Positions 1,011 through 48,120 of a stretch of 64,000 nt of DNA are shown piece after piece (position 1 is the first letter of the stretch; every line of letters starts with the position of its first letter). A program made the translations under genes and the position numbers. This DNA comes from an uncultured Candidatus Woesearchaeota archaeon. Its GTDB lineage: Archaea > Nanobdellota > Nanobdellia > Woesearchaeales > GW2011-AR9. The notes under the pieces were generated by a model. It ran no database searches and was not told the DNA's origin. It was given only the letters and a program-made list of their open reading frames with translations. Location of the stretch: the NCBI GenBank assembly GCA_902529885.1, contig CABZYC010000001.1, positions 156,177-220,176 of the forward strand, written 5' to 3'.

Positions 1011-1031
1011 ACCAAAACAATTTTTTTTTCA

Positions 1032-1964: not shown

Positions 1965-1972
1965 TGGAAAAG

Positions 1973-2086: not shown

Positions 2087-2143
2087 TTAACTCCTCATTC
2101 GAACAAGAGGATATAAAAAGCTTTCGAGTAAAACAAAAATTGT

Positions 2144-2915: not shown

Positions 2916-3301
2916 TTTAACAAGCTACTCTTAAAAAGTTCAGGCAGGTGAGCTTTACACCGTACAACTTTAATGTCCAATCCATTCTTTTCAATATACT
3001 GAACTAACTCTTTCTCATCAATCTTTTGATCATAACCTAAACAAATAATGTGTGGTTCTACCATTTGCAAAATTGAAAAAATGTCATTAGTATCATTCCC
3101 CTTAACAACCGTATCAACCATAGACAATACGCCTAATCCCCAACACCGTTCTTGCTGATTAAACTTTAAGCGTTTTTGAGAACGGTCGTCGTGGGCTACC
3201 ACAACTGAAAGATGGTCACCATATTGTTTAGCTTGCTCAAAAAAATGAAGGTGCCCTGGATGAACTATGTCGAATGTCCCTGCAACCATTACTTTCTTCA
3301 T
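2912..3301 (-). CDS. ribL: FAD synthase (FMN adenylyltransferase) RibL-type nucleotidyltransferase
   Basis: N-terminal AGTFDIVHPGHL is the (H/T)xGH nucleotidyltransferase motif. Length (129 aa) and overall pattern resemble archaeal RibL (MJ1179-like). Confidence 0.55.
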   Translation of the reverse strand: MKKVMVAGTFDIVHPGHLHFFEQAKQYGDHLSVVVAHDDRSQKRLKFNQQERCWGLGVLSMVDTVVKGNDTNDIFSILQMVEPHIICLGYDQKIDEKELVQYIEKNGLDIKVVRCKAHLPELFKSSLLK

Positions 3302-3352
3302 ACCCCCAAGGATGACGGAAACTTTATAAAGTATTTCATAGGATGCTCGTGT

Positions 3353-3517
3353 ATGACAGTATGTAACTCAACAAAAAGGTCTGTTTCAAATGATCAAGGC
3401 TCCGTACAATTTCCTTGCCCAAAATGTGGTAAGCAGACTATTGTACGAAGTAGTGAAGCGCGTAAAGCAGGATTAAAGTACACTTGTCCTTGCGGCGAAT
3501 TCACGGGGCCTAACTAA
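3353..3517 (+). CDS. Zn-ribbon protein (COG2888-like), conserved neighbour of aEF-1beta
   Basis: C-terminal CPKCG...CPCG zinc ribbon; the stop overlaps the EF-1beta start. The track ORF 3212-3517 extends upstream into the opposite-strand RibL gene, so I prefer the internal ATG at 3353. Confidence 0.45.
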   Translation: MTVCNSTKRSVSNDQGSVQFPCPKCGKQTIVRSSEARKAGLKYTCPCGEFTGPN

Positions 3518-3795
3518 TGGCAAAAGCAGTTGTAACCTTCAAACTTATGCCTGAAACTCCTGAAGTAGATTACGAAAATATTGCAACAAAGGCGTTAGAA
3601 ATCACTAAATCAGAAGGTGCAATAGGCGAACAGCGTAGCGAGATTGAACCAATCGCGTTCGGTTTAAAATGTGTTAAAGTGTTAGGAATGTTTGATGTTG
3701 ACAGTAACGATTTTGAGGCTATCAGTGCAAAACTTGCAGAACTTGAGGGTGTAACCACTGCAGAAGTTGCAAAGATGGACCTAGCTATGGGTTAA
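3517..3795 (+). CDS. ef1b: Elongation factor 1-beta (aEF-1beta)
   Basis: 92 aa. MAKAVVTFKLMPETPEVDYENI... matches the archaeal EF-1beta N-terminus (KIKVMPESPEVDLE). Confidence 0.85.
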   Translation: MAKAVVTFKLMPETPEVDYENIATKALEITKSEGAIGEQRSEIEPIAFGLKCVKVLGMFDVDSNDFEAISAKLAELEGVTTAEVAKMDLAMG

Positions 3796-4788
3796 TTCCC
3801 TTAACACATATTCTACATTACCTTTAATCACACGCTCACTAAAATGTGTTTGTGTTCCACCCATCTTTAACAAGTTTTTGAATGGAGGAACGTTACGGTG
3901 AAGTGAAGAGCATACTGCATAAACATCAACACCGCCAAACACGTCATTCTCAGATAATAACTTCTTTGCCCACTCATTATCAAGAGATTGCAAAAAATCT
4001 TTATCTTGTAATAATCCTGTATATAATGGGCCCAAAAACTGGCCCTCACCATAATTATATCTGCTTATAGTTAACTGATGATTGTGATATTGAGCATAAT
4101 GATGTTGGTCAAGCAACTTATCTACAGCTTTTTTTCCGTATTTAACACGGAAAAAAATCCGGTAATAATGGTCTTTACTATAGCTCATGATGGGTGTGAG
4201 CGCACGTTCTAATGATGCACCTTGTAATTGACAATAGCGTATCAAAATTCGTATACCTAACTCATGCATATGATTCGTACGAATATTTTTTGCCCAATAT
4301 TTTCGTCGTGCAACAGTAGGGTATGTTCCAGTGAGCGCAGCAGTGTCAGTTGCAGTAATAGCTAATATTGCACCATTACGCATGCTAGATATTGCAGCTT
4401 GGATGAACGGAGCAGGTGTTCCAAACGGGTCAAGATCTAAATAATCAAAATGTTTTACTGATTGCATGAAAACGTTTGCGTCCATATTATGAATTATAGG
4501 TAGATCACAATCATTAGCAGAAAATAAATGGTGGACTACATCCATAAAATTACTACGTTTATCATTAACATAAACCTCAGGGGCATACCCACACTCCTTC
4601 ATTATACGGACAGCACGAATCCCTGACCCAGACAATGGTAAACCTATACGAACAGGTTTAACTTTTTTGACTACTGCAACAGAAACGTCACGATGATGTT
4701 TCATGACCGGATTATAAAAAACATCCATCGATTTACACACGTCCCCTTGATGTTCTGGTAACGGTACAATTATGTTGCCTTCCTTCAT
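3781..4788 (-). CDS. trm1: tRNA (guanine26-N2)-dimethyltransferase Trm1
   Basis: DLDPFGTPAPF is the hallmark Trm1 SAM/catalytic motif. 335 aa. Confidence 0.8.
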   Translation of the reverse strand: MKEGNIIVPLPEHQGDVCKSMDVFYNPVMKHHRDVSVAVVKKVKPVRIGLPLSGSGIRAVRIMKECGYAPEVYVNDKRSNFMDVVHHLFSANDCDLPIIHNMDANVFMQSVKHFDYLDLDPFGTPAPFIQAAISSMRNGAILAITATDTAALTGTYPTVARRKYWAKNIRTNHMHELGIRILIRYCQLQGASLERALTPIMSYSKDHYYRIFFRVKYGKKAVDKLLDQHHYAQYHNHQLTISRYNYGEGQFLGPLYTGLLQDKDFLQSLDNEWAKKLLSENDVFGGVDVYAVCSSLHRNVPPFKNLLKMGGTQTHFSERVIKGNVEYVLRELTHS

Positions 4789-4831
4789 AAAGCTACAATC
4801 TACCTAAACCTTTAAAAAATATTGTGCAGCG

Positions 4832-6616
4832 TTGAGTGGTATGTTACGAAAAGTTCTCATCACGGTCGTTGGTCACGTTGACCATGGTAAAACCACTTTG
4901 TTAGATACCATCAGGACCACAACTGTTGCGAACGCAGAAGCTGGTGCAATCACGCAAGCAATCGGAGTATCGATTATACCTATTGAAACAATTAAACAAA
5001 TATGTGGGTCTCTGCTTGATGTTTTCAAAGATAACCTTAAAGTACCGGGATTATTAGCTATTGATACCCCGGGCCACGCAGCCTTCACTTCATTACGTAA
5101 ACGAGGCGGGTCTCTTGCAGACATTGCAATTTTGGTTGTTGATATTAATGAAGGGTTCAAACCGCAAACAATTGAAAGTATTGAAATCCTCAAAAAAAAT
5201 AAGGTCCCATTCATTATTGCTGCTAACAAAGTCGATTTAATACACGGATGGAACTTTGATGAAAAAAAGAGGTTATTACAAAATATTGCAGGGCTTGACG
5301 CTCGTGCACAACAAATGTTTGAAACGAAGTTGTACGAAGTTGTCGGGCAAGTGCATGAACATGCAGGCATGAACGCTGACAGGTTTGATCGTGTACAAGA
5401 TTATACTAACCAGATCGCAATTGTACCAGTAAGCGCTAAAAAAGGGCAAGGGATCCCTGAACTTTTAATGGTAATGACTGGCCTTGCACAAAAGTTTCTT
5501 GAAAAAAAATTAGAAGTGAACGTTGAAGGTGACGCGAAAGGTACGGTTTTAGAAGTAAAAGAAGTAAAAGGGTTGGGTGTCACATTAGATTGTATCATAT
5601 ACCAAGGCACACTTTCTGTCAATGACTACATTATTATCGGTGGGCTTGATAAACCAGTCACAAGCAAAATACGGGCGCTATTAGAACCAGATCAAAACCA
5701 AGAAATGAGAGTAAAAGGTAAATTTCATAATGTTGACTCTGTACAAGCCGCGACAGGTGTTAAAGTAGTAGCACCAAACATTGACGGGGTAATTGCAGGG
5801 ATGCCGTTACGTAGCAGTAAAAGTGATGTTGAGAAATATTACAATGATATTGTTAACGAGGTTGGAGAAGTACTTAATATTGATAATAGTGAGCATGGCG
5901 TAATAATAAAAGCTGATACTATAGGGGGCCTTGAAGCTTTACGAAACCTTCTTGACGAACGGTCCATCCCAATAGGTGCAGCAAGCATAGGTAACGTTTC
6001 AAAACGTGATCTTGCACTACTTGAAAGTATGAAAGAGGTTAATGAAGAATTTGCAGTCTTATTAGGTTTCAATATTGAAACACCAACAGACATTCAATCA
6101 CTTGCAAAAAATAAAAAATTGGCGGTTTATACCGACCCAGTAATTTATTCTATCATAGACAAGTATGAAACTTATGTTAAAGAGTATAAACAAATGTTAG
6201 AACAACAACAGTTGTCAGACGTTCAACGGCCGTTCAAGATTCATTTTATGCCCAGTTTTACTTTTAGACAATCTAACCCAGCAATTGGCGGTTTTGATAT
6301 TCTTAAAGGGACAGTGAAAGTTGGTGCAAGAGTAATAAACAATGAAGGAGAACGTTTGGGTACCATTAAAAGTATTAAGGAAGGTAAAGATAACGTTAGT
6401 AAAGCTGAACAAGGTGCACAAGTTCCGATCGCGGTAGACGGCCCAACCATAGGCCGTCAACTTAACGAGGACGACATTTTATATTCGGATATTAACGAAA
6501 CAGATTTTGTTAAACTTAAAGAATTCAAACATCTTTTATCAGGGGAAGAAAAAGAAGTACTCAGAGAAATCGCTGTTATAAAAAGAAATGTTAACCCGGT
6601 ATGGGGTATAGGTTAA
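4832..6616 (+). CDS. infB: Translation initiation factor aIF5B (IF-2 homologue)
   Basis: G1 VVGHVDHGKTTLLD, G3 DTPGH, G4 NKVD. 594 aa with the characteristic domain order. Confidence 0.9.
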   Translation: MSGMLRKVLITVVGHVDHGKTTLLDTIRTTTVANAEAGAITQAIGVSIIPIETIKQICGSLLDVFKDNLKVPGLLAIDTPGHAAFTSLRKRGGSLADIAILVVDINEGFKPQTIESIEILKKNKVPFIIAANKVDLIHGWNFDEKKRLLQNIAGLDARAQQMFETKLYEVVGQVHEHAGMNADRFDRVQDYTNQIAIVPVSAKKGQGIPELLMVMTGLAQKFLEKKLEVNVEGDAKGTVLEVKEVKGLGVTLDCIIYQGTLSVNDYIIIGGLDKPVTSKIRALLEPDQNQEMRVKGKFHNVDSVQAATGVKVVAPNIDGVIAGMPLRSSKSDVEKYYNDIVNEVGEVLNIDNSEHGVIIKADTIGGLEALRNLLDERSIPIGAASIGNVSKRDLALLESMKEVNEEFAVLLGFNIETPTDIQSLAKNKKLAVYTDPVIYSIIDKYETYVKEYKQMLEQQQLSDVQRPFKIHFMPSFTFRQSNPAIGGFDILKGTVKVGARVINNEGERLGTIKSIKEGKDNVSKAEQGAQVPIAVDGPTIGRQLNEDDILYSDINETDFVKLKEFKHLLSGEEKEVLREIAVIKRNVNPVWGIG

Positions 6617-7401
6617 TATACACCGTACCAAGATAATAATAATCTATCAACGGCCCGTACTAACTCCCACTCAGTACCAGACAATTTTACGCAAGTACCA
6701 GAAAGTTCAATAGAAGTTTCGTTAACATAAGATAACTCGATAAGTGGCAAATTATCCGGATTATTATCACAGCTTATAACTTGTCGATTATTACACAGTG
6801 TACTATTATCATTAACTGAACATGCACTCATTGTGGACAGATCATACACAGAGTTAAGATTCGTTGCAAGTTCTGATGCAGCCAAGGTTAAATATTTACT
6901 TTCAACTGTTGGATCAAACGAAATATAAATCTCGTTACCCATATAAAACTCCGTTGTTAAAGAACCGTCAATAGTAACATTCTCAAGTTCCTGAGGACCA
7001 AAACGTAAAGGGATACTAAACACATTATCTCCTACTTCCACTTCAGTGAACCATAATCCGTCAATGTTCAAAAAACTGTACCCATTGTACACATAAGCTT
7101 CCTCCTCAAGGTCTTCACCCATCAAATTATCAGTATGAAGCTCGCCAATATTTTTAATCTCTGGTGTCGCATAATGGTTGTATAATGCAAAGCTTACAAG
7201 TAGTACGGCAAATATACCTATTACTGTACCAATGACCAATAAATAATTTACAGGGTTATCCTCTGAACTCGCAGGGGTCACCGTTGGTTTATTATCTTCC
7301 ATAGTACTCTTCCCATCAATATTGTCCTTTTTATGCTTTTTGACTGAAATGTTTATCAAACAGTGCTTATTCACAATATTATGAAAGACTTGCTGGACCA
7401 A
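6613..7401 (-). CDS. Membrane-anchored hypothetical protein (single TM)
   Basis: One hydrophobic helix (LLVIGTVIGIFAVLLVSFALY) followed by a Ser/Thr/Asn-rich domain. The real start is probably the internal Met at about 7302 (MEDNKPTV). Confidence 0.4.
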   Translation of the reverse strand: MVQQVFHNIVNKHCLINISVKKHKKDNIDGKSTMEDNKPTVTPASSEDNPVNYLLVIGTVIGIFAVLLVSFALYNHYATPEIKNIGELHTDNLMGEDLEEEAYVYNGYSFLNIDGLWFTEVEVGDNVFSIPLRFGPQELENVTIDGSLTTEFYMGNEIYISFDPTVESKYLTLAASELATNLNSVYDLSTMSACSVNDNSTLCNNRQVISCDNNPDNLPLIELSYVNETSIELSGTCVKLSGTEWELVRAVDRLLLSWYGVY

Positions 7402-8370
7402 GCATCATCCGTGCACAACACCCATTTTGATGGGTCTGTACGTTTTGAACGAAGCATTTTCACTAATTGGACCTGTGCCATTGCTGACTGTAAATACTGT
7501 TATCTGTCAACAAAACCAAAGCATAGACCGGGAAACGAAACGACCGCGTTACGTTCTAAAGAAAGTATCTGGGCAGAGGCCTTATTATGTAAAAAGATGG
7601 GGTGGCACGTGAGTTATATCACAGGAGGCCTTAGAGTTGAACGTATTGAGCAGTTAATTCCAATCTTGGAAGGGTTAGAACAAGTGTTAGGGTACAAAGT
7701 GATGATGAACTATGGCCCTTTCGCCAAATCAGAGATACAAAAATTGGCGCCTTACATAACAGGCATGGGTAGCGCGATTGAAAGTTTCGACGAAAAGTTG
7801 CACAACGAAATCTGTCCTAGTAAACCGCTGCATACTTTAACAAGATACCTAGAAGTTGTACATGAAGAAGGCCTGAAAACTTTGATTACAATCATCTTAG
7901 GATTAGGAGAAACTAAAAACGACCTGGGTATGATCTGTGAAAATATTGAGAAGTATAACATTGACATTGTCCAACTTTGCTTTTTAAAACCGCAAGAAGG
8001 TACACCCTACGCCAACGTACCGTCACCAGACACTAAGTACATGGCATGGTGGGTAGCACAATTACGTGTTAAGTTTCCTACATTATACATTAAAGTGGCG
8101 TTGGTCCCTGAATGCACAGACAATTTTCATCTGCTTCTTGACGCTGGCGTGAACGCGTTCTCAAGGTTCATGATCTACAAACATTTTGGGACGGACCTTG
8201 CAAAAACGTTGGTTAAAGAATGTTCATCACGTAAACTAAAAGGCGAGTTCCTAAACGTGCCTGAGCTAGAGATTGGAGATTTACCTTTCGGTACTGAAAC
8301 GAACGAAAAAGTAGAAATAAAATTTTGGCAGTATGTTAAACGGTTACAACATAAACCGAGACGTAATTAA
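7363..8370 (+). CDS. Radical SAM-like enzyme (BioB/ThiH-like fold) with an atypical CX4CX2C cluster motif
   Basis: WTCAIADCKYCYL gives a three-cysteine cluster with spacing C-x4-C-x2-C, then a glycine-rich YITGG and TIM-barrel-like periodicity. Subfamily not assignable. Confidence 0.45.
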   Translation: MLIHNIMKDLLDQASSVHNTHFDGSVRFERSIFTNWTCAIADCKYCYLSTKPKHRPGNETTALRSKESIWAEALLCKKMGWHVSYITGGLRVERIEQLIPILEGLEQVLGYKVMMNYGPFAKSEIQKLAPYITGMGSAIESFDEKLHNEICPSKPLHTLTRYLEVVHEEGLKTLITIILGLGETKNDLGMICENIEKYNIDIVQLCFLKPQEGTPYANVPSPDTKYMAWWVAQLRVKFPTLYIKVALVPECTDNFHLLLDAGVNAFSRFMIYKHFGTDLAKTLVKECSSRKLKGEFLNVPELEIGDLPFGTETNEKVEIKFWQYVKRLQHKPRRN

Positions 8371-8982
8371 AAACTGTGATGATAATATCAATAACACTAT
8401 GAAAATAGCACCTGCGTTTAATTCGTACGCTTTACTCAAATTGTATAATTGGTAAACACACAAAATAATGAGTGCTCCTAAACTAACGAAAGGTATTATT
8501 TGTAATGACGAAATTATCAAAAATATTACTAAAGGGTACACTATCAAATTAAAAGTGTGAGAATACACAGCCTCCTTCTTAAACAATTTTATTACAACAT
8601 TTATGATGGCTGATAAAACCAATAAGGCCGGTATCCAGTATAACGATAACATCGTGGATACCCCTAAAGCAGCCAGCACTATACCAATACCATCATATAT
8701 ACTAGCCATAGAAGAACCAAAACCTTGTAACATGTATCTAAAAAATAATACTTGTATGATACTACTCAAAAAACTAAATATTAATACAAACATGATGGGT
8801 TTAAACACGTAATCCTCTTTCACTGCGTTCCCCACAAATTTTGATGGGTTATACAAATAAATCAACGGTGAAAAAAAAGAAGTCTGTTTGGTATCAACAT
8901 TCTGTTCGATTGCATCTAAACGTGCATCTACACTTGTTTCAACTGAATCTACAGGTTCTTGTGCCGAAATTTCGTTTTCCAT
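8344..8982 (-). CDS. Polytopic membrane protein (Yip1/DUF1282-like)
   Basis: Acidic N-terminal tail followed by 4-5 predicted TM helices. Confidence 0.4.
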   Translation of the reverse strand: MENEISAQEPVDSVETSVDARLDAIEQNVDTKQTSFFSPLIYLYNPSKFVGNAVKEDYVFKPIMFVLIFSFLSSIIQVLFFRYMLQGFGSSMASIYDGIGIVLAALGVSTMLSLYWIPALLVLSAIINVVIKLFKKEAVYSHTFNLIVYPLVIFLIISSLQIIPFVSLGALIILCVYQLYNLSKAYELNAGAIFIVLLILSSQFLITSRFML

Positions 8983-9084
8983 ATAGATACAACATTAAAA
9001 TAACTATAAAAAACACCCGTTATAGAAACTAGCTAATGTCAAAAATACCGTTATACATATATAATTTAACTTCACCTAGTAACT

Positions 9085-9912
9085 ATGAAAATTGAATCTT
9101 TTGATAGTACTAAAATTGATTATAATATTAAAAAAGGTAGTAAACCCTGTTTAATATTTGTCCATGGGTGGGCAAATAATAAAACTACATGGAAAAACGA
9201 GATTAAATTTTTTGAAAAGAAAGGATATTCCATAATTAGTTTAGACCTTAGAGGACACGGACAATCTGATAAGCCTGAAAATAAAGAGATGTATACAATT
9301 GAATCCTTTGCTAAAGATATTCATTGTATCATTAAAAAAGAAGAAGTAAAACAATGTGTTCTTATTGGTCACAGTATGGGGGGAATGATTTCTTTAATGT
9401 ATTACAAACTTTTTGAGTATGAGGATAAAGTTAAAGCATTAATCTTGTGTGATACAACATCAAATAATGTTCTTGAGCATAAAAAACTGAATGTGTTACT
9501 GCCCTTCACAAAACATGTATTAGATTTTATTATTGAGCATCAAACAATCTCCCAAAATCATTTTAAACATCTCAAAAATGTTGATTTGAGCACCTATACC
9601 ACTGCGTCTGATTACCGTGTTTTTTACGAGGGTTTACATAATACACCACTTAAATCAGTGTTTGCTTGTTTAGAATCAATGTTAGACCTTAACCTAAAAA
9701 GTATGTTGTCAAAAATTAATGTGCCAGTTCTAATCATTGAAGGTACAAATGATAAAATCCTACCTGAAATTGATTCAATAGAAATGTTCAACCAAATTAA
9801 AGATGCAGAGATCCATTATGTGCATAAAGGAAAACATTTCGTAAACATTGAGAATGTAAGTGAGATGAATAAATCTGTTCTGAATTTCCTTGTTAAACAT
9901 CAATTAGAATAA
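9085..9912 (+). CDS. Alpha/beta-fold hydrolase (esterase/lipase family)
   Basis: HGW oxyanion region and GHSMGG nucleophile elbow (GxSxG). 275 aa. Confidence 0.7.
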   Translation: MKIESFDSTKIDYNIKKGSKPCLIFVHGWANNKTTWKNEIKFFEKKGYSIISLDLRGHGQSDKPENKEMYTIESFAKDIHCIIKKEEVKQCVLIGHSMGGMISLMYYKLFEYEDKVKALILCDTTSNNVLEHKKLNVLLPFTKHVLDFIIEHQTISQNHFKHLKNVDLSTYTTASDYRVFYEGLHNTPLKSVFACLESMLDLNLKSMLSKINVPVLIIEGTNDKILPEIDSIEMFNQIKDAEIHYVHKGKHFVNIENVSEMNKSVLNFLVKHQLE

Positions 9913-9943
9913 TTAATATAAGCTGGAATTATCTTAATTAGTA

Positions 9944-10144
9944 ATGGTTCTATACATTAATAAAAAGGTCATTGAAAAAAATAAACTCTTCTTGTTTATT
10001 TTTGGAGTCATTAGCCTAATTATGGTACCATTTGGATTTTGGATTGAAAGTTTAATTATTATTTTAGTTGGTATACTTATTGCCCTACACATCTTATGGT
10101 TACTTATAATCCCTCTATTTTTGAAAGATGTCCAAGAATTATAA
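9944..10144 (+). CDS. Small hydrophobic protein (2 TM), possibly spurious
   Basis: 66-aa ORF with two hydrophobic segments in very AT-rich DNA. Confidence 0.2.
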   Translation: MVLYINKKVIEKNKLFLFIFGVISLIMVPFGFWIESLIIILVGILIALHILWLLIIPLFLKDVQEL

Positions 10145-10275
10145 ATCATCTTTTACCAATTATAACACATATGAACCGCTTTCCGCATGTTCATGGTACT
10201 GTAAAAGATAAGGCTCGTTGATCCCTTATTTAAGAAAAACATTAAATTTAAATCATACAAGATAATATATTTAAT

Positions 10276-11340
10276 ATGATATTTAATTTATTCAACTTAC
10301 TTCTTGGTAAAAAACATAAACAAACCCAAGAAAAAATCATCTCTAATTCTAAAAGATTTTTCCATATATTATCTAAAAATAAAAAATCTAGAAAAACGTC
10401 TTATGATATTGATCATCAAAAAACAAGGCTTGAAACAATTAGATGTTTTAAAGCTAATACTGACCTAGGTTTAAAAGAAGATAATTATATCTACCATATG
10501 CTTGAAAAAGAACTAAATGAGATACATAGGTTGAAAGCGAATTTATGTGATCTTAAAAAGATGTTCAATAAAGAAATAGATATATGTGATACAAAAAAAG
10601 ACTGTGCTAAATTACTTAAAAAAATGTTCTCTAAATCATTTAATAATATTAAACTTGAATTAGAAGAATTACTTTCATGCCATAAAAGGTCAAATATTCT
10701 GTTCGATTTAGACCGTCGTGTAAGGACATTAAAAATTATTGAAGATGCAGGAATAGTGTACGATGTTGATCCAAAAAAATTAAAAAATCAACATTACAAA
10801 AATCGTAATATCCAAAATCTTATTTTTATTCATCAAAAACTAAATGAGATGAGCTTTCTTTCAAAAATAAATAATTCGCTTTTAATGAAACATGCCAATA
10901 CTGCTGAAATAAATAGAGAGATTATTAAGTTTAAACAAGACCTACTTAAATTTGACTATAGGTTACAGTCCTGGAAATTTTATTTTATTTACTCTGTATC
11001 TAGGGGAAGACCTTCTAATGGGAGATTTACACTAGATGCTTATTTTAAGGATTCAGAATCAGTGATAAATCACTACATGGGAATAAATGGTGTCAATCAA
11101 GATAGATTATTAAAAAATATTAATGATAGAATAATCATAAGATATTTCAAAAAAAAGGGCGAAGTAAGCCTCCGGTCTATTCATGAGCCATATTATTTTG
11201 TTTCTGAAATAAATAAGCTTCTAAATCAGATTAAAACTATTGAAAATAGCATACTAGACATTGAAGGAGACTTAAAGAAAGTAATTCAGAATGATAAAAG
11301 ATTAAAAAAGGATTCTAGAAAGATCAAACAAAAAAAATGA
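10276..11340 (+). CDS. Lysine-rich hypothetical protein (ORFan) in an AT-rich island
   Basis: 354-aa uninterrupted ORF, K/N/I-rich, no recognisable motif. Local composition is visibly more AT-rich than the flanking housekeeping genes. Confidence 0.45.
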   Translation: MIFNLFNLLLGKKHKQTQEKIISNSKRFFHILSKNKKSRKTSYDIDHQKTRLETIRCFKANTDLGLKEDNYIYHMLEKELNEIHRLKANLCDLKKMFNKEIDICDTKKDCAKLLKKMFSKSFNNIKLELEELLSCHKRSNILFDLDRRVRTLKIIEDAGIVYDVDPKKLKNQHYKNRNIQNLIFIHQKLNEMSFLSKINNSLLMKHANTAEINREIIKFKQDLLKFDYRLQSWKFYFIYSVSRGRPSNGRFTLDAYFKDSESVINHYMGINGVNQDRLLKNINDRIIIRYFKKKGEVSLRSIHEPYYFVSEINKLLNQIKTIENSILDIEGDLKKVIQNDKRLKKDSRKIKQKK

Positions 11341-11526
11341 GATCATTATTTAATCATAGATTAGGAAGAAACAACTTCATCACCACTGTGTATTTACACA
11401 GTCAAAAGATTGTGAAGAAAGAGCCCCATTAGTGCCGATTATATCTAAAACAAAATCTTGAGTCAAATCAGTTTTAAGACTATATTTCGCAAGGATTTGA
11501 TCTATTTCTGCATGTAAACTTGAGAA

Positions 11527-11598
11527 AGCCTTTGGGGGGATTTGAACCCCCGACCTGCTGCTTACGAGGCAGCCGCTATACCGCTAAGCCACAAAGGC
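11527..11598 (-). tRNA. tRNA-Thr(CGU)
   Basis: Reverse complement reads GCCUUUG UG GCUU AGCGGUA UAGC G GCUGC CUCGUAA GCAGC AGGUC GGGGG UUCAAAU CCCCC CAAAGGC U. Acceptor is a perfect 7 bp, anticodon stem 5 bp, T-arm 5 bp, D-stem 3 bp, discriminator U. Confidence 0.7.
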
Positions 11599-11674
11599 AT
11601 GTCTCAATAATGATGGCCACTGTTTAAAAATATTATGACAAACAATTTATAAGGTAACATCCAAGGATAGTCAT

Positions 11675-13420
11675 ATGAAAAAGCGTATCGCAGTCATCCA
11701 TAAGGATAAGTGTAATCCGCAAGGGTGCGGTAATTACCTTTGTGCAAAATTATGTCCAGTTAATAGAACTGGTGAAGATTGTATTAAGGAAGGTGACGAA
11801 TATTCTAATAAAGCAGTCATCGACGAGATATTATGTACTGGGTGCGGTATTTGCCCAACACGTTGCCCATACGGTGCAATTGAAATTATTAATCTGCCTG
11901 CAGAACTTGAAAAAGAGCCTGTGCACAGGTTTGATAAAAACAGTTTTGCATTGTATTCCCTCCCTACACCTGTCAACGGAAAAATAACAGGGTTATTAGG
12001 CCGTAACGGTATGGGTAAAAGTACTGCGTTCAAAATTCTTGGTGGGTTACAAATGGCCAACCTTGGAAATTATGAAGAGAAAGCAGATGTACGAAAACTG
12101 TTTGAATATTTTAAAGGGACTCAGATGCTTGCACACCTTGAACGTTTAGAAAAAGGCGAAGTTACTTTATCATACAAACCGCAGCAAGTAGAATTTATCC
12201 CGCGCCAATTTGATGGGACAGTAAAAGAATTGTTCAAATCTGAAAGTGCGAAAGAAATGTTGAAACAACTAGATATTGAACATACATGGGACCGAGATGT
12301 GAAACATATTAGTGGCGGTGAATTACAACGTGTTGCGATTGCAGCAGCTGCCTTAAAAAAGGCAACATTAACATTGTATGATGAGCCGTCAAGTTACCTT
12401 GATATTAAACAGCGTATCAATGTATCAAAGTTTATCCGAGAACATAGTTCTGAAAATACTGCAACCATGGTTATTGAACACGATTTAATCATTTTAGATT
12501 ATATGACGGACGTACTGAACATTATGTACGGGCACCCTGGAGTCTACGGTATTGTATCCGGAGTGAAAAGTGTAAGGGAAGGTATCAACTCTTACCTTGA
12601 CGGTTACTTAAAAGAAGAAAATACCAGGATACGTACTGCACCCTTAAAGTTTGAACAGTCTGTTGAACGTGTGACAGCGTTCCCACAACCTGTATTAGAA
12701 TGGTCAGAACTACAATTTGCAGTTGGTGAATTCAACCTTTCAGTACATAAAGGCGCATTAAACAAAAATGAGATTATTGGTATATTAGGTGAAAACGGTA
12801 TTGGAAAAACTACGTTTGTTAAAATGTTAGCAGGCGAAGTTGAGTGTGACCTTGACCAACAATTAAATGTTGCGTACAAACCACAGTACCTTGACTATGC
12901 AAACAATGAAACTTTAGTTGCTGAATTTTTATCACGGGCCATTGAACACTATGAAGCTTCTATTGTGAAACCACTCAATCTAGAAACTTTGTACGGGCGC
13001 CAACTAAACCAATTGTCAGGCGGAGAACTGCAACGGGTTGTTATTGCAAAAACTTTGGCTGAAAATGCAGACTTGTTCTTATTAGATGAACCATCTGCAT
13101 ACCTTGATGTCGAACAAAGGATAGCCATTGGGAAAGTTATAAAACGGGTAGCTGCTGACCGCGAACTTACCATCATGGTGGTTGACCACGATTTAATGTT
13201 CATGGATTTTTTATCTGACAAAATCATGGTGTTTGAAGGTACACCTGGACAACATGGTGAAGCTACAGGGCCATGGGAAAAACAAGATGGGATGAACAAA
13301 TTTCTTGAAAACCTGAATATTACACTTCGTAGAGACATGCATTCTCACAGGCCACGAATCAATAAACAAAATAGTGTGAAAGATAGAGATCAGCGGTCAG
13401 CTAACAAGTGGTACTACTGA
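11675..13420 (+). CDS. abcE1: ABCE1 / RNase L inhibitor (ribosome recycling factor), Fe-S ABC ATPase
   Basis: N-terminal 4Fe-4S cysteine clusters (CNPQGCGNYLCAKLCP; CTGCGICPTRCPYG). Two ABC cassettes: Walker A GRNGMGKST and GENGIGKTT, signature LSGGELQR twice. C-terminal RPRINK..YY tail. Confidence 0.9.
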   Translation: MKKRIAVIHKDKCNPQGCGNYLCAKLCPVNRTGEDCIKEGDEYSNKAVIDEILCTGCGICPTRCPYGAIEIINLPAELEKEPVHRFDKNSFALYSLPTPVNGKITGLLGRNGMGKSTAFKILGGLQMANLGNYEEKADVRKLFEYFKGTQMLAHLERLEKGEVTLSYKPQQVEFIPRQFDGTVKELFKSESAKEMLKQLDIEHTWDRDVKHISGGELQRVAIAAAALKKATLTLYDEPSSYLDIKQRINVSKFIREHSSENTATMVIEHDLIILDYMTDVLNIMYGHPGVYGIVSGVKSVREGINSYLDGYLKEENTRIRTAPLKFEQSVERVTAFPQPVLEWSELQFAVGEFNLSVHKGALNKNEIIGILGENGIGKTTFVKMLAGEVECDLDQQLNVAYKPQYLDYANNETLVAEFLSRAIEHYEASIVKPLNLETLYGRQLNQLSGGELQRVVIAKTLAENADLFLLDEPSAYLDVEQRIAIGKVIKRVAADRELTIMVVDHDLMFMDFLSDKIMVFEGTPGQHGEATGPWEKQDGMNKFLENLNITLRRDMHSHRPRINKQNSVKDRDQRSANKWYY

Positions 13421-13723
13421 AATTTTTCCACGAAAATTGTAACCAGGCGTCAACGTATCATAATACACTAAATCTTCCCACACTTGAACTTCTATATCTT
13501 CGCCGGGATTTAGCCGATGGTCAAACGTGCCGTCATAATTTGTTATAGTGTGCACATAAGCATCATGATTCTTAAAACGAATATAAGACCCTTCATAAAC
13601 TTCTAAATCGGGTTGTTCAAAACCTAACATAGTTATGTCAATAACCATCTCTACAGGCCCTACAACTTCTACAGTAGGTGGTAAACAGCCCACTAATAAT
13701 AATAATATCATCCAATACCTCAT
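13397..13723 (-). CDS. Secreted lipobox protein (probable lipoprotein), small beta-rich domain
   Basis: N-terminus MRYWMILLLLVGC has a hydrophobic h-region followed by an L-V-G-C lipobox. Confidence 0.5.
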   Translation of the reverse strand: MRYWMILLLLVGCLPPTVEVVGPVEMVIDITMLGFEQPDLEVYEGSYIRFKNHDAYVHTITNYDGTFDHRLNPGEDIEVQVWEDLVYYDTLTPGYNFRGKISVVPLVS

Positions 13724-13764
13724 ATGTTGGTTATCAAGGTCACAAATATAAACATGCGTTATGT

Positions 13765-14133
13765 TTAATAGTTGTTTTCTAGTGGCGGCATTGGAAACAA
13801 TGTATCTAGTACATCAAGCTTCTTAGAGTATGGTACATGCACCTTACGCAATTTTCCTTGAAAAGCAGAAAATAATGATCTAAACCAGACGTACATAAAC
13901 ACAAGTATAGGTGCCATCATTATCCATGACCAACCAGTCAATAAAGCTATAGGTGCAAGAACTATTTGAGATATGACAACAACTAATAACAAAAATGTGA
14001 AAATGATTGATTGTTTTACATAAAAACGTACAAAAGTGTTTGGGTAAGCATACAAAATTATGCTAAAAAGACCCGTGCATAATGCAAGGACTGCAAGAAA
14101 ACGTTCACCGTGTAAGAAAACGTTTCCAATCAT
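13765..14133 (-). CDS. Small membrane protein (3 TM)
   Basis: Hydrophobic 122-aa ORF between lgt and the lipobox gene. Its start overlaps the end of lgt, so the true start may be further in. Confidence 0.35.
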   Translation of the reverse strand: MIGNVFLHGERFLAVLALCTGLFSIILYAYPNTFVRFYVKQSIIFTFLLLVVVISQIVLAPIALLTGWSWIMMAPILVFMYVWFRSLFSAFQGKLRKVHVPYSKKLDVLDTLFPMPPLENNY

Positions 14134-14887
14134 CTTTGTAATACCTCATAAACATATAACATGATACAACAACCATAAAAACACACATCCATTGTCCTTT
14201 ACTCAACCCATAATACATTATATCCTCTCGAAATACGTCTAGTATTAAACGAGTTATACCATCCCAAAATACAAAATTCCAAAATATGAAGCCAGCAGTC
14301 CATTGATGCACAATGGCCCTAACATTTAACCAAAATAACCAGCCAGTAATAAGAAACCGTTTCCCTGCCGCGTACAGAGTGGACGGGTGCCGGCACCCTT
14401 CAACACCATCGTATACAACGCACCAAGGCGCATCTGTTACACGGCCCAACAGTTCCCCATTAATAAAATTGGCAATACGGCCCAGAGCTAAGGATGCCAT
14501 CACTGGGGCAGCCCCATAATCTGCCATACGCCAAAAGTCCCACTTATACTTTCTGCACCAGAAGTAGTTTGCAACAACTATACCCACTAACCCACCATGA
14601 AAACTCATGCCACCCTTCCATATCTTGAAAATTTCTAAAGGGTTAGAAAAATAGTATGCTGGCTCCCATACATACATGAACAATCGTGCACCAATCACAA
14701 CGCCCATTATTAAAAAAAATGCATAATCTTCAATCTGCTTTTTTGTATAATCTACAAGTTCTCTTCTAGATAAATAACGAAGCCAATATATCACAAAAAA
14801 TACGCCGGCAATGTATGCTAAAGAGTACCAATAAATGTCTAAAGGGCCAATACTTAGGACGATTGGATCAAAATTATGAGTTATCAT
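14105..14887 (-). CDS. lgt: Prolipoprotein diacylglyceryl transferase Lgt
   Basis: N-terminal FDPIVLSIGPLDIYWYSL; Lgt signature GRIANFINGELLGR (compare E. coli GRIGNFINGELWGR); RHPSTLY (compare RHPSQLYE). 260 aa polytopic. Confidence 0.8.
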   Translation of the reverse strand: MITHNFDPIVLSIGPLDIYWYSLAYIAGVFFVIYWLRYLSRRELVDYTKKQIEDYAFFLIMGVVIGARLFMYVWEPAYYFSNPLEIFKIWKGGMSFHGGLVGIVVANYFWCRKYKWDFWRMADYGAAPVMASLALGRIANFINGELLGRVTDAPWCVVYDGVEGCRHPSTLYAAGKRFLITGWLFWLNVRAIVHQWTAGFIFWNFVFWDGITRLILDVFREDIMYYGLSKGQWMCVFMVVVSCYMFMRYYKDDWKRFLTR

Positions 14888-14948
14888 AAACTAAATTTAG
14901 TCGTGTTCACATAAAAGGTTTTTTATGTAGCCACCATTATTTTGTTGT

Positions 14949-15662
14949 ATGGCACGGTTTTGGACACACGTAAAACGAGTTATTCGCGATGCAGACATAC
15001 TCATAGAAGTATTAGACTCACGTCACGTCGAAGAATCACGTAACCGAGAAATTGAAGATAAAGTCCACGAAGCAGGTAAAAGACTCATCTACGTTATTAA
15101 CAAAGTTGATATGGCCGACCTTGACACGATTAAAGTGTATAAAAAATTTTTACACCCTTGCGTCTTTGTAAGTTCACGAGACAGATTAGGCACTACATTA
15201 TTACTTAAAAAGATCTTGGAAGTGAGTCGAGGGAAAGAATGCACAGTAGGTGTTTTAGGATACCCGAACGTTGGAAAAAGTAGTTTAATCAATGCATTGA
15301 GCGGGAAACATGCAGCGAGCACGTCGTCACGTTCAGGACACACAAAGGGACAACAAAAAGTTAGGTTGAACAACAAAATCATGTTGCTTGATTCACCAGG
15401 TGTGTACCCCTACAAAGATGGTAATGAAACAAAACATGCATTAATCAGTGCAGTGGATTATTCTCAATTAAGAGACCCTTACGAAGCCGTGTGCAGACTG
15501 CACGAAGAACACCCAGAATTCTTTTTTCAGTGGACACAGTACGCTGACGTTGACGATATTTTAGAAGATGTTGCAAAACAAAAAAACTTGTTGAAAAAAG
15601 GAGGCGGTATTGACGAAGACCGTGTCTGCAGATACATTGTTAAAGTGTGGCAGCAGGGTTAA
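14949..15662 (+). CDS. Circularly permuted GTPase (YlqF/RbgA-Nug1 family), ribosome-biogenesis type
   Basis: G4 (INKVD) comes before G1 (GYPNVGKSSLINAL) and G3 (DSPG), which is the cpGTPase order. Confidence 0.7.
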   Translation: MARFWTHVKRVIRDADILIEVLDSRHVEESRNREIEDKVHEAGKRLIYVINKVDMADLDTIKVYKKFLHPCVFVSSRDRLGTTLLLKKILEVSRGKECTVGVLGYPNVGKSSLINALSGKHAASTSSRSGHTKGQQKVRLNNKIMLLDSPGVYPYKDGNETKHALISAVDYSQLRDPYEAVCRLHEEHPEFFFQWTQYADVDDILEDVAKQKNLLKKGGGIDEDRVCRYIVKVWQQG

Positions 15663-16306
15663 ATATTGAACCAAGTGTGCCATTCACCCTTATGATTATA
15701 ATTTATAATTTGCCAATTAAAATGGTGTTGTGAAATATAATGGTAAGAAATTGAATTCATATGGCCCATATTCTTAACAACATCATTTGCTAACCTCGAT
15801 AAAAAAGTTTGATCTAAAATTCCGTGAACTACAGATATATGAGTGTAAGTATGTATTGATGCTAAAAAATGTTCAACATTAATATTAACCATGGCCCTTG
15901 AACGCTCAGCATTCTGTTTATATCCAACAATTGCAGACACTTTATTATCACCATAAAAATAACCAATTGGAATCTTTATTGACGCAACCTTTCTACACAC
16001 TAAATATCCAAAAGGGATAAAGATTTTTGCATGCTGATTAATTGAATGCCAATCACTACGATTAATAGAACTACTACCATGGTGTAAAAAGCAGTAATGT
16101 GAAGGATAAAATAACTGTAATGAGAATTCTGCACCTTGAGCATGATTATGTATATAATCTAATGCACGGCCATCACCAGAAGGATTGAAATGAGTGTTAA
16201 GATACAATTGAAAATTAGCAACTTCTTTGTTAACATGCATTTTAAAACCGGATATCTCTACACGATTTTCACGTGCCCCACCAAATAACCTGTTCCAAAA
16301 ACCCAT
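15659..16306 (-). CDS. His-rich hypothetical protein (possible metal-dependent cupin-like enzyme)
   Basis: 215 aa, numerous His residues, no diagnostic motif. Confidence 0.3.
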   Translation of the reverse strand: MGFWNRLFGGARENRVEISGFKMHVNKEVANFQLYLNTHFNPSGDGRALDYIHNHAQGAEFSLQLFYPSHYCFLHHGSSSINRSDWHSINQHAKIFIPFGYLVCRKVASIKIPIGYFYGDNKVSAIVGYKQNAERSRAMVNINVEHFLASIHTYTHISVVHGILDQTFLSRLANDVVKNMGHMNSISYHYISQHHFNWQIINYNHKGEWHTWFNI

Positions 16307-16334
16307 AAATTAACTAATACCATAACTACTTATA

Positions 16335-18521
16335 TTACTTTTCATAAGGTGACAAAGACACAATACGTATTTGGTCCACCGTTTTTTTCCCTATACCTGG
16401 CACAGACAACAATTCGCGTTCACTCGCTGTGACAATTCGCCATACACAACCAAAACGTTGTAATAATAATCGTGCGGCTTTCGGACCAATACCCGGAAAC
16501 GATTGTATGATATACTCCTGTTGTTCAATTAATGATTGTGGTTTTGACTGGTGTAACGATACTTCCCTCTTTACAGAGTTTTGACACCGTTTTGCAAGTG
16601 ATAATAACATCTCGCACGAGTCTCCGTAATCCTTTGAATGTAATATTGGCACTTGAAAGTCTATGGCTATACTTGCTAAAGCGCCACGGATCGCACCAGG
16701 ATGCACTTTACGCACAGAATACAAGTCGCCACCTTGCACTAACAAAACTATGTGCATCCCACAACTTTTTAGGGTGGACAACTGTTTCATGAGCCGACCA
16801 TCAAGTAAACTTCCCACAAAATCTTCTGCTTGTTTAAATTCTACTGCAATCTGCCCGTCAATAATATAATCTGCATACTCCAACTGTTCAACTTTGACAC
16901 GAACACCTTTATCCACTAACTTCTTCACAAGAATGTTATCCTTCTCACGGTGGTCCGCAATAATGGTGTGGTCAAGCTGAACATAATCAGACAAGGATTT
17001 TTGGGGCAAGACCAGATCATTCTTGAACGATTTCAAAACAGTCTGCATTTTGCTCTCGCGCCGTTTACTGATATACCTGTAAGCTTCGTCACGCGTACCC
17101 TTCATGAAAAGTACGTGTACATGCCCCGTATTATGGCGCCCCGTACGACCCCTACGCTGAATGTTCCTGATCGCAGAAGGGGTCGGCTCATAAAAAAAAA
17201 CATTGTCGACAGCTGGAATGTCTAACCCTTCTTCTGCAACAGATGTTGCCACTAAAATCTGGAACTCTTTCGCACGAAAACGGTCCAACATAACTTTTTG
17301 TTGTTTTTGTGAAAGGCCTAACCCTTTCTTTTTAGTTTGGCCAACGAACAAGTCAGCGGTGTAACCTTCTTCACGTAACCGTTCAATAATACGTGCGCCA
17401 GTATCACGGTAATTTGCAAAAAGTAATACTAGTCCTTTAACACCCTCAAGTTTTTGGCATAACACATCCAATTTAGGTTGATGATTCTCAAGGTTACCAG
17501 CCATCTTGATTGCACGCACAAATTCTACGTCTGCAATCAACCGTTTTACAGCTTTTACTTTTCCACGGCGTGCCTGGTCAACAACATCGTCAAGGTACGT
17601 TTTACAACTCATTACGCCCTGGCACTCCAACAGTTCAATTGAATATTCTACTTTGATTGCTTCAGCTACATAGCTTAGCCCTTGCCAAACAGTTTCATCT
17701 GCATCTTTAAGCCTGCCTTGCAATTTACGTTGTATTTTTAACAGGTCACCTTTACTACGCATTTGGTGCGTTGTACCAATTATGGATTGTAACTGTTTGA
17801 CACGTGCATCATACACTAATTTTAGTTGACGGTGTAAAGGTTTCCAATCACTTGGAAAGTTTACTGGTACCCAATCAATCTTGACATCTTGAACATACTG
17901 TTTAACGTCAGGGTCATCATAAGACCGAACGTCAACATGTTCAATAAAAAGGTTGTCGCACACTTCCTGGACATCTTCTTTAGTGCTTCCTGGTGATGCA
18001 GATAAGGCCAAAATGTGTGGTGACTGAGCTGTTTCCATATAACGTTTGGCCAGCCAACAATAAGAATAGTTCCCACGCGCATGATGCGCTTCGTCAAACA
18101 CTATTAAACTGACATCCTTAAAAGATATACGATTGTTCAATACATCGTTCTCTATTCCTTGCGGTGTTGAAATAATAATCTTGCTTGAATCCCACATAAT
18201 CTCGCGTTTTTCAGGTTTCACGCTTCCTGTTAACAAAGAAACCATATCGGTTGGTAACGTTAAATGTTCATTGAACGTTTTATGATGTTGTTGACATAAA
18301 GGTTTGGTTGGCGACATAACCAAAATTTTACCTTTTTTATGCCTGTGCACAGCCATCATAAGTGCTAATGCAGTTTTTCCAAGGCCAGTGGGTAACACTG
18401 CCAAAGTGTTTTGTTTCACAGCATTAGCATACATTGTTTGTTGGTACAATCGTGGCGTGAAATTGTGTAGCATTAAACACTGTACAAACCGTATACCTTT
18501 TATTCTTGTCGTTACATTCAT
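16335..18521 (-). CDS. hef: Hef helicase-nuclease (FANCM/XPF family)
   Basis: Helicase motifs LPTGLGKT, DEAH (VFDEAHHARG), QRRGRTGR. C-terminal XPF-type nuclease ERK motif (HREKDNILVKKLVDKG...) and an HhH2 tail. Confidence 0.85.
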   Translation of the reverse strand: MNVTTRIKGIRFVQCLMLHNFTPRLYQQTMYANAVKQNTLAVLPTGLGKTALALMMAVHRHKKGKILVMSPTKPLCQQHHKTFNEHLTLPTDMVSLLTGSVKPEKREIMWDSSKIIISTPQGIENDVLNNRISFKDVSLIVFDEAHHARGNYSYCWLAKRYMETAQSPHILALSASPGSTKEDVQEVCDNLFIEHVDVRSYDDPDVKQYVQDVKIDWVPVNFPSDWKPLHRQLKLVYDARVKQLQSIIGTTHQMRSKGDLLKIQRKLQGRLKDADETVWQGLSYVAEAIKVEYSIELLECQGVMSCKTYLDDVVDQARRGKVKAVKRLIADVEFVRAIKMAGNLENHQPKLDVLCQKLEGVKGLVLLFANYRDTGARIIERLREEGYTADLFVGQTKKKGLGLSQKQQKVMLDRFRAKEFQILVATSVAEEGLDIPAVDNVFFYEPTPSAIRNIQRRGRTGRHNTGHVHVLFMKGTRDEAYRYISKRRESKMQTVLKSFKNDLVLPQKSLSDYVQLDHTIIADHREKDNILVKKLVDKGVRVKVEQLEYADYIIDGQIAVEFKQAEDFVGSLLDGRLMKQLSTLKSCGMHIVLLVQGGDLYSVRKVHPGAIRGALASIAIDFQVPILHSKDYGDSCEMLLSLAKRCQNSVKREVSLHQSKPQSLIEQQEYIIQSFPGIGPKAARLLLQRFGCVWRIVTASERELLSVPGIGKKTVDQIRIVSLSPYEK

Positions 18522-18546
18522 ATAATAGTATTAGATTATATTATGT

Positions 18547-19874: not shown

Positions 19875-19892
19875 AGTATAACTAGATAGCCG

Positions 19893-48096: not shown

Positions 48097-48120
48097 GATG
48101 ATTATCTCCTTATTTAAATA

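Follow-up and report, generated by a model that had tools for sequence, protein, structure and literature searches.

We lean towards reading the DNA between the radical-SAM gene, which ends at position 8370, and the 3' end of the tRNA-Thr gene at position 11527 as a strain-variable hot spot of the flexible genome. The host population is a Woesearchaeota/Nanoarchaeota-like (DPANN) archaeon, and the hot spot is an ordinary one and not a recognisable virus or plasmid. All positions refer to the window, by which we mean the whole stretch of 64,000 nucleotides that was analysed; the features of the locus are collected in Table 1.

Table 1. Features of the variable locus and of its immediate surroundings, in window positions.
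Feature	Position	Strand	Basis or remark
Yip1-like multi-pass membrane protein, 212 aa	8344..8982	-	Pfam match below cut-off
Alpha/beta-fold hydrolase, 275 aa	9085..9912	+	PF00561, E 3.4e-32
Segment differing between alleles A and B	9939..11522		blastn: no similarity inside the segment
tm66, two-TM protein, 66 aa	9944..10144	+	Hydropathy: two hydrophobic spans
ORFan module, about 1.3 kb, window only	10222..11522		blastn, alignments with L079
TATA-like box TTTAAA	10247..10252	+	29 nt upstream of the ORFan ATG
Lysine-rich basic ORFan, 354 aa	10276..11340	+	Open frame far longer than in shuffles
Perfect 8-bp palindrome with 2-nt spacer, ACTGTGTA-TT-TACACAGT	11385..11402		45 nt past the ORFan stop codon
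tRNA-Thr(CGT)	11527..11598	-	ARAGORN; Rfam 71.4 bits

The comparison set comprised ten metagenome contigs from the same population, found by exact-protein look-ups, with flanks that are 94-98.6% identical. Allele A is that of the window itself and has been seen in one assembly only. Allele B is carried by six contigs (L001-L005 and L081) whose flanks are 97-98.6% identical to the window; in place of positions 9939-11522, these contigs possess 937 bp of unrelated DNA with a 183-aa ORF and an 82-aa two-TM ORF. Allele C (L079, L082 on its left side only, and a JGI 3300072015 contig) has kept tm66, which it thereby has in common with allele A, and is missing the Yip1-like gene. When the window was compared with L079 by blastn, positions 9045-10219 were aligned and the next alignment covered positions 11523-11579; between the region downstream of tm66 and the tRNA gene, allele C has 46 bp of unrelated sequence in place of the ORFan module. 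This 46-bp arrangement was seen in two contigs; for the JGI contig, the spacing is evident from its gene table. On the left side of the locus, the module at 8385-9044 with the Yip1-like gene is carried by the window and the B-type contigs and absent from the C-type contigs; in L079 and L082 the radical-SAM gene directly adjoins the hydrolase gene. All right-hand breakpoints are located at most 4 nt from the tRNA 3' end (11522/11523), and the tRNA-Thr(CGT) gene, which is also found in L001-L005, forms the right edge of every allele whose contig reaches that far. In all close relatives covering it, the segment 9939-11522 is replaced or largely missing.

Alleles A and B are alike in their GC content (about 0.26), and no homology was detected between their cassette proteins; the window encodes no paralogues of them. 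The gene for the 183-aa protein of allele B was also present in L080, where it resides in another genomic context with 77% nucleotide identity; the similarity is confined to the ORF plus 3-6 nt per side. For tm66, we found a relative (P0013) that is 91% identical at the protein level. The density of SNPs beside the slot rises only slightly, so that no clear recombination tracts stand out. A gain of the ORFan in A and its loss in C would be equally parsimonious.

The restriction of allele A to a single NCBI contig, with no metagenome contig carrying it, would also be found if the 1.3-kb module had been misjoined into a metagenome-assembled contig. We regard such an assembly artefact as extremely unlikely: the sequence on either side of the module is colinear with independent assemblies and 94-98.6% identical to them, the module itself consists of a complete gene whose promoter and codon usage are of the host type, and chimeric joins do not usually take the form of clean internal insertions.

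The hydrolase gene is core to the population and lies outside of the variable segment. An earlier note on this DNA had counted it as part of the latter, with an edge at 9.0 kb; this position is not a structural boundary, and the hydrolase is found in every population contig at 92-97% identity (97% in L001-L005 and 92-94% in L079). The protein matches PF00561 over residues 22-257 with 112.5 bits, well above the cut-off of 25.8 bits, and its translation contains the GHSMGG nucleophile elbow (G-x-S-x-G); no equivalog cut-off was reached in NCBIfam. In the Yip1-like protein, the match to the Yip1 domain (PF04893) spans positions 4-162 of the 173-position model and scores 23.9 bits vs. a cut-off of 28.6 bits; the gene has a TATA-like box at -28.

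If the locus is a hot spot of the flexible genome, its slot would be assembled from single-gene modules, each preceded by a separate TATA box some 28 nt ahead of the start codon. The Yip1-like gene, which is present in some alleles and absent in others, would be such a module, and the hydrolase gene is the constant element; tm66 is exchanged in some strains for the unrelated pair of genes encoding the 183-aa and 82-aa proteins, and the 1.3-kb ORFan module was seen in this genome only. We infer that the alleles pass between co-occurring strains via homologous recombination in the conserved flanks, which would be the hydrolase gene on the left and the tRNA and ABCE1 genes on the right. The modules may have originated through illegitimate insertion or through a site-specific insertion whose traces were erased long ago, and their donors were probably of similar composition; i.e., related DPANN cells or the unsampled mobile elements of such cells.

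The observation of an A+T-rich, ORFan-bearing region beside tRNA-Thr, from which the earlier note had started, is confirmed. The A+T-rich stretch from about 9.0 kb to the tRNA gene is real: positions 9001-11500 are the lowest-GC 2.5 kb in the 64-kb window (GC 0.274 vs. a mean of 0.347, sd 0.028, z about -2.6), with the runner-up at 58.5-61 kb (GC 0.282). Measured in 300-nt windows, the GC content amounts to 0.25-0.31 from about 8950 to 11350 vs. 0.37-0.42 on either flank. The gene content was also described correctly, with an alpha/beta hydrolase, a small two-TM ORF of 66 aa, the 354-aa ORFan, and tRNA-Thr. In the ORFan, GC values of 0.338, 0.225, and 0.208 were obtained for the first, second, and third codon positions, respectively (GC3 mean 0.261, sd 0.055); the low GC content is thus mainly a matter of positions 1 and 2 and reflects the amino-acid composition. 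Some housekeeping genes in the same window are just as A+T-rich (TFE-alpha 0.277, DUF424 0.259). The codon-usage comparison that had been proposed as a check yielded genome-typical, host-like synonymous codon usage, with z values of -0.42 for the ORFan and -0.27 for the hydrolase in a set of three values that also includes -0.88. Since housekeeping genes are equally A+T-rich, and codon usage and promoters are native, neither low GC content nor ORFan status is a signal of foreign DNA in this genome.

The ORFan protein is rich in lysine (15%), leucine (11%), isoleucine (10.5%), and asparagine (9%) and has a pI of 9.8. Its open frame is real; it extends over 362 codons vs. 67 +/- 15 (maximum 156) across 2000 shuffles. 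Searches that covered about 15 billion proteins yielded no homologue; both a search of 5.8 billion clusters and a full HMMER search against 1.84 billion representatives returned the self-match only. Likewise, no match was obtained in Pfam, PHROG, PADLOC, NCBIfam, or PDB, and the search of viral, phage, and plasmid databases (IMG/VR, INPHARED, PLSDB), which had been suggested as a further check, revealed no relative. Neither the ORFan nor the hydrolase gave a match in a metagenome contig collection from which the relevant samples are evidently missing. The ORFan protein is predicted to be mostly helical and to be devoid of a TM span. AF2 modelling gave a pLDDT of 41 for the full-length protein and of 56 for its C-terminal 159 aa, with long helices only; these models were not good enough to support a fold search, and structure-based annotation was therefore set aside. 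A defence system was dismissed as well, since PADLOC finds nothing among the cassette proteins. TATA-like matches before the ORFs of the window peak at -29 to -27 (27 matches vs. 0-6 in the other 3-nt bins), and the predicted promoter geometry of the ORFan matches this host-type, leaderless arrangement. Most likely, the ORFan would be a basic, largely helical accessory protein that is expressed and resides in the cytoplasm; it may bind nucleic acids or take part in conflicts with viruses or with the host cell.

It is improbable that the ORFan is a young gene that was not imported and either arose de novo in this lineage or diverged there until it was no longer recognisable. Host-like synonymous codon usage, a canonical promoter, a low-complexity K/N/I-rich sequence, and a low-confidence structure would all be in keeping with such an origin, as would the missing homologues among about 15 billion proteins, exhaustive HMMER search included; these missing homologues are weak evidence, however, because DPANN genomes are sparsely sampled. 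Moreover, neither allele B nor allele C has a non-coding stretch corresponding to the 1.3 kb, out of which the gene could have emerged, and a frame of 354 codons in DNA of 26% GC is so far beyond chance that an origin in a single step is unlikely.

The interpretation of the region as an acquired or integrated element is partly supported. The tRNA-Thr gene is located on the minus strand, so that its 3' end faces the ORFan; the segment directly downstream of this end is accessory and is largely absent or replaced in relatives, but no integrase, att site, or gene with viral or plasmid relatives was found with it. The alternative to a hot spot is a remnant of a virus or plasmid that would have entered by a tyrosine-recombinase crossover in the 3' part of tRNA-Thr and would then have lost its integrase and distal att site, with the ORFan and tm66 as the surviving cargo. 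We consider this possible but doubtful. The tRNA 3' end points toward the island, the cassettes are A+T-rich ORFans, and both allele comparisons break at most 4 nt from the tRNA end, a pattern that integrase-mediated insertion leaves as well. In L079, the motif GGGATATGAACCC, located 8-20 nt from the tRNA, matches the tRNA T-arm at 12 of 13 positions, a score reached by one of 300 shuffles; this motif could be an old att remnant. Archaeal integrases of the SSV type have their own gene split upon integration, with decay to follow (PMC8371274), and a 66-codon frame in the window runs from inside the tRNA gene to position 11383. This tRNA-spanning frame, however, has no match in Pfam, PHROG, or any fetched locus, and we rejected it as an SSV-type split integrase.

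Further evidence speaks against a remnant. There are no integrase or transposase Pfam matches among the genes of the syntenic contig L001 (20.8 kb, with a third of the genes devoid of any Pfam record), and a recombinase scan of plausible ORFs of at least 40 aa in 8.3-11.7 kb disclosed no integrase. A direct repeat of the tRNA-Thr 3' end, which the earlier note had proposed to look for near 9.0 kb, occurs neither there nor elsewhere in the window: exact tRNA repeats of at least 11 nt are absent from it, and when the tRNA was aligned locally with positions 9913-11526, the top score was 16, as compared to 15.9 +/- 2.0 in shuffles. No terminal repeats were found that flank the variable segment. 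None of the genes tested has viral, phage, or plasmid relatives, codon usage and promoter are host-like, and each module is a single gene of 0.3-1.3 kb, far smaller than known archaeal integrative elements. The palindrome between the ORFan and the tRNA gene exists as had been described, albeit at the position given in Table 1 instead of 11383-11401. Perfect 8-bp inverted repeats with loops of 0-6 nt are found 15 times in the window vs. 13.2 +/- 4.6 times in shuffles; with this chance-level frequency, and no T-run after it, the palindrome was rejected both as a terminator and as an att core. An Rfam scan for RNA elements detected the tRNA only.

Integron gene-cassette arrays are bacterial; archaeal ones were reported in 2022. 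Like these arrays, the locus studied here has units of one gene each that lie close to a promoter and differ from strain to strain. Unlike in integrons, a separate TATA box precedes every gene, one of the genes is encoded on the other strand, and no IntI-like gene is found among the Pfam matches in the 20.8 kb of the syntenic contig L001. No attC site stands out in the spacers (31, 131, and 186 bp) in a repeat scan of 8300-11700 and by eye; the local hairpins seen by eye in these spacers have 6-8 bp only. It is very unlikely, in our estimate, that the locus represents an integrase-free exchange of cassettes at the tRNA-Thr 3' end by an undescribed mechanism, in which single genes would travel with their own leaderless promoters and the ORFan, lineage-born or extremely fast-evolving, would serve in virus conflict or host-cell interaction.

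A flexible-genome hot spot of the kind that we favor has counterparts in the additive flexible genomic islands at tRNA genes of Alteromonas and other marine bacteria (PMC4898812). Like those islands, the locus has a fixed chromosomal site beside a tRNA gene in all strains, and strains differ in their combinations of small cassettes that encode mostly hypothetical proteins (PMC4898812); here, different cassettes occupy one locus in near-identical strains (94-98.6%), with the tRNA gene at the site. A further likeness may be that one cassette gene recurs in another background (L080); in the few genomes compared, the cassette content also seems uncoupled from core similarity, with tm66 being present in A and the more distant C and not in the closer B. 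Unlike those islands, this one resides in an archaeal (DPANN) host, is very small, with one or two genes in 0.4-1.6 kb, and carries population-restricted ORFans instead of recognisable adaptive functions; the 'tell-tale' partial tRNA repeat and the integrase were not found. With tRNA-integrated elements of the SSV and pNOB8 types (PMC8371274), it has in common the location at a tRNA 3' end, the presence/absence polymorphism, the A+T-richness, and the filling with ORFans. It differs from them in possessing no integrase or integrase fragment, att repeat, or viral or plasmid gene, in its host-like codon usage, and in a size that is smaller by one to two orders of magnitude (PMC8371274).

The locus reveals no new system. 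It provides a clean case, resolved to the base pair, in which an uncultured DPANN population shows microdiversity of its gene content, a stretch of 3 kb being represented by three or four alleles; it advises caution in the use of island callers and offers a marker locus for strain tracking.

We also inspected the gene order in family-level relatives, whose ABCE1 proteins are 55-62% identical. The hydrolase is not at the syntenic site in these genomes, and none of the four genes of the region is found at this position. The flanking order is kept: aIF2, hyp262, radical SAM, ABCE1, and LGT follow each other in the same way. In the window, the tRNA-Thr(CGT) gene is divergent from ABCE1 (11675-13420), and in several of the family-level relatives ARAGORN detects, immediately upstream of ABCE1, a tRNA whose anticodon is of the CGT type. 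The gap before ABCE1 measures 0.6-3 kb in these relatives and is filled with unrelated contents.

The GC content lies between 0.25 and 0.31 across about 8950-11350, as opposed to 0.37-0.42 on either side, and the segment 9001-11500 (GC 0.274) is the minimum among the 2.5-kb windows of the 64 kb (mean 0.347, sd 0.028). This bears out the AT-rich island next to tRNA-Thr described in the earlier note, and the features named there (a hydrolase, a two-TM ORF, a 354-aa ORF, and the tRNA-Thr gene) are all present. Since the tRNA-Thr(CGT) gene is located on the minus strand, its 3' end faces the lysine-rich 354-aa ORF, referred to here as the ORFan. The palindrome between them exists as well, at a position slightly different from the 11383-11401 of the earlier note; 8-bp inverted repeats of this kind occur 15 times in the window versus 13.2 ± 4.6 times in shuffled sequences, and the palindrome is thus uninformative.

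Features of the A+T-rich region next to tRNA-Thr(CGT)
Feature	Position	Remark
alpha/beta hydrolase	9085-9912	PF00561, E 3.4e-32
tm66, 66-aa two-TM ORF	9944-10144	
TATA-like box of the ORFan, TTTAAA	10247-10252	position -29
ORFan, 354-aa lysine-rich ORF	10276-11340	
palindrome, 8-bp inverted repeat	11385-11402	
tRNA-Thr(CGT)	11527-11598	minus strand

In the slot adjacent to the tRNA, single-gene modules vary among strains of one population. Contigs of this population were traced via the 90%-identity cluster of the hydrolase (nine members), yielding ten contigs from independent metagenomes that represent three alleles of the stretch between the radical-SAM gene and the tRNA. Allele A is that of the window and was found nowhere else. 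Allele B (L001-L005 and L081) is 97-98.6% identical to the window over 1-9938 and 11523-20793, and an unrelated segment of 937 bp, with ORFs for a 183-aa protein and a two-TM protein of 82 aa, stands for window positions 9939-11522 (1584 bp). Allele C (L079, a contig of JGI 3300072015 represented by its gene table only, and L082, left side only) shares 94-96% identity with the window. The Yip1-like module (8385-9044) is missing from it; L079, L082, and JGI 3300072015 all lack the Yip1-like gene, and the hydrolase directly follows the radical-SAM gene at a distance of 52 bp. On the right side, allele C retains tm66 and the 77 bp after it, followed by 46 unrelated bp and the tRNA, so that the ORFan module (10222-11522) constitutes an indel relative to C. 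The A/B and A/C alignments both resume at 11523, 4 nt from the tRNA 3' end. We regard a misassembly as improbable. On the tree ((A,B),C), gain of the ORFan module in the window lineage and its loss in C require one extra event each. The hydrolase, which had been counted as a member of the acquired island, is found in every population contig and hence is core to the population and lies outside the variable segment.

In contig L006, similarity to the window ends inside the hydrolase at 9821 and is followed by 136 unrelated bp up to the contig end (L006 10738-10873), reflecting a fourth allele or, alternatively, a chimeric end of the contig. An unrelated peptide (…HTIAAMHAVFSGTYGTRTG…) is encoded in this terminal stretch and, to our eye, is reminiscent of sulfatase/phosphodiesterase-type motifs. 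At the junction of the Yip1-like deletion in allele C, 'ATA' is the only microhomology visible by eye, and in all B-type contigs the Yip1-like gene is separated from the hydrolase by about 80 extra bp (L001 9855-9933 versus window 9018-9026). A second strain-variable slot is present at 15673-16265 (gene 15659-16306, minus strand): the window codes there for a 215-aa protein without a Pfam match, L001 and L005 carry an unrelated 359 bp with a 137-aa ORF, and the flanks are 97.5-98.5% identical.

The tRNA-adjacent slot of the window fits what has been described as additive flexible genomic islands, integration hot spots situated mostly at tRNA genes that harbor strain-specific cassette combinations uncoupled from the core phylogeny (PMC4898812). 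Homologous recombination in the conserved flanks would pass the alleles among co-occurring cells, and the modules might have originated by illegitimate insertion, or by a site-specific insertion since erased, from donors of presumably similar composition. SNP density rises next to the slot, too slightly to prove recombination tracts. A cluster of mismatches with L001 (16 in the 150 bp of 8100-8249, the 3' part of the radical-SAM gene, versus 0-5 in adjacent bins) may be such a tract. The locus is a small, ordinary case of known genome plasticity, in a poorly studied archaeal group.

A horizontally acquired or degraded integrated element, as proposed in the earlier note, is favored mainly by breakpoints that are flush with the tRNA 3' end, at which the slot indeed varies among strains; it is disfavored by the lack of an att site, an integrase, and viral or plasmid relatives. 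The direct repeat of the tRNA-Thr 3' end expected as an att site was not found in the window: exact repeats of the tRNA of at least 11 nt are absent throughout it, local alignment of the tRNA with 9913-11526 scores at best the shuffle mean, and neither direct nor inverted terminal repeats flank the modules. The sole att hint stems from L079, where GGGATATGAACCC, 8-20 nt from the tRNA end, matches the T-arm at 12 of 13 positions; this score was reached by 1 of 300 shuffles and is marginal, given that six comparisons were made. We detected no integrase among the ORFs of the region or in the precomputed Pfam hits of a 20.8-kb syntenic contig. Neither the 183-aa protein, the hydrolase, nor the Yip1-like protein has viral or plasmid relatives, and the search suggested for the ORFan likewise gave none in IMG/VR, the INPHARED phages, and the PLSDB plasmids; a metagenome contig collection contained no relative of it either. 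On balance, the proposal of the earlier note is supported in part, and we consider a decayed integrated element possible but rather doubtful. Split SSV-type integrases provide a model for a reading frame that runs out of a tRNA gene (PMC8371274); the 66-codon frame that does so here matches nothing.

Base composition and codon usage, proposed as a further check, gave a divided answer. The low GC content of the region is significant but concentrated in codon positions 1 and 2 (ORFan: GC1 0.338, GC2 0.225, GC3 0.208; window GC3: mean 0.261, sd 0.055), and equally A+T-rich housekeeping genes exist in the window (TFE-alpha, 0.277; DUF424, 0.259). Synonymous codon choice, assessed for 62 ORFs by a likelihood score corrected for amino-acid content, is not deviant (z = -0.42 for the ORFan, -0.27 for the hydrolase, and -0.88 for the Yip1-like gene). 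Among the same number of ORFs, a TATA-like pattern (TTTAWA/TTTATA) peaks 27-29 nt before the ATG (27 matches versus 0-6 in other 3-nt bins), which indicates that the mRNAs of this organism are, as predicted from sequence, mostly leaderless. This box occupies the peak position in front of the ORFan, tm66, the hydrolase, and the Yip1-like gene alike. Between 1-46000 and 46000-64000 of the window, GC3 of the genes falls from about 0.27-0.33 to about 0.16-0.21 and overall GC from about 0.36 to about 0.32, a long-range shift in composition.

The open frame of the ORFan spans 362 codons and therefore represents a real ORF, since shuffling these 1.3 kb 2000 times gave frames of 67 ± 15 codons (at most 156). 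Searches of 5.8 billion protein clusters and, by exhaustive HMMER, of 1.84 billion representatives returned only the self-match. We consider a de novo origin of the ORFan unlikely. Pfam, PHROG, PADLOC, NCBIfam, and PDB contained no match, in keeping with the reported absence of a recognizable domain. AlphaFold2 run without an alignment gave a pLDDT of 41 for the full-length protein and of 56 for its C-terminal 159 residues, with long helices as the sole confident element. The protein is basic (pI 9.8, 15% Lys) and lacks a hydrophobic span. All that its sequence permits us to say is that it is putatively soluble, strongly basic, and for the most part helical, is preceded by a promoter of native type, and appears dispensable in the population. 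Family, structure, and gene neighborhood offer no handle on its function; our best guess, tentative as it is, would be a nucleic-acid-binding or conflict-related accessory protein.

The window is of archaeal origin, with genes for aIF2, ABCE1, aS21, EF-1beta, TruD, and Trm1 (judged from ORFs and from the Pfam labels of syntenic contigs). Nothing in the species-representative genome set exceeds 62% identity to its ABCE1, and the closest matches come from MAGs that bear the label Nanoarchaeota, Woesearchaeota, or just 'archaeon'; the source is therefore probably a DPANN (Woesearchaeales-like) archaeon. In about 15 relatives at the family level (ABCE1 55-62% identical), aIF2, hyp262, and radical SAM, followed by ABCE1 and LGT, retain their order. 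The hydrolase, the Yip1-like gene, tm66, and the ORFan are missing from the pre-ABCE1 position in all of them. The interval before ABCE1 measures 0.6-3 kb in these relatives and holds unrelated genes (one that by eye resembles pyrF, a pair of AbrB/PIN-like genes, and various hypotheticals); hence, the tRNA neighborhood is plastic at every sampled depth. In several of them, ARAGORN places a tRNA immediately upstream of ABCE1, usually of 84-93 nt and with the anticodon out of register, which is probably an intron-containing tRNA-Thr(CGT); outright tRNA-Thr calls are confined to L012, L024, and L032, whose copies lie farther away. Odd anticodon calls at this position (cgta, tcgt, 'Arg tcg') occur in L016, L019, L023, L052, L058, and L064. 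Candidate AbrB/MazE-like and PIN-like pairs, VapBC-type by eye, lie just upstream of ABCE1 in L016 (7347-7924), L022 (7334-7944), and L015 (7314-7924); the pair of L016 sits between the tRNA and ABCE1, a further accessory insertion on the opposite side of the tRNA.

A single additional relative, P0017 (78% identical), was found for the 183-aa gene of allele B. It adjoins a NOG1-type GTPase in contig L080, and the nucleotide similarity extends beyond the ORF by just 6 nt on the upstream and 3 nt on the downstream side. This different context shows that cassette genes of the slot occur elsewhere in related genomes. On the same contig (L080 4442-5136), a LAGLIDADG-type ORF adjoins and overlaps a 94-nt tRNA-Ala(GGC) call.
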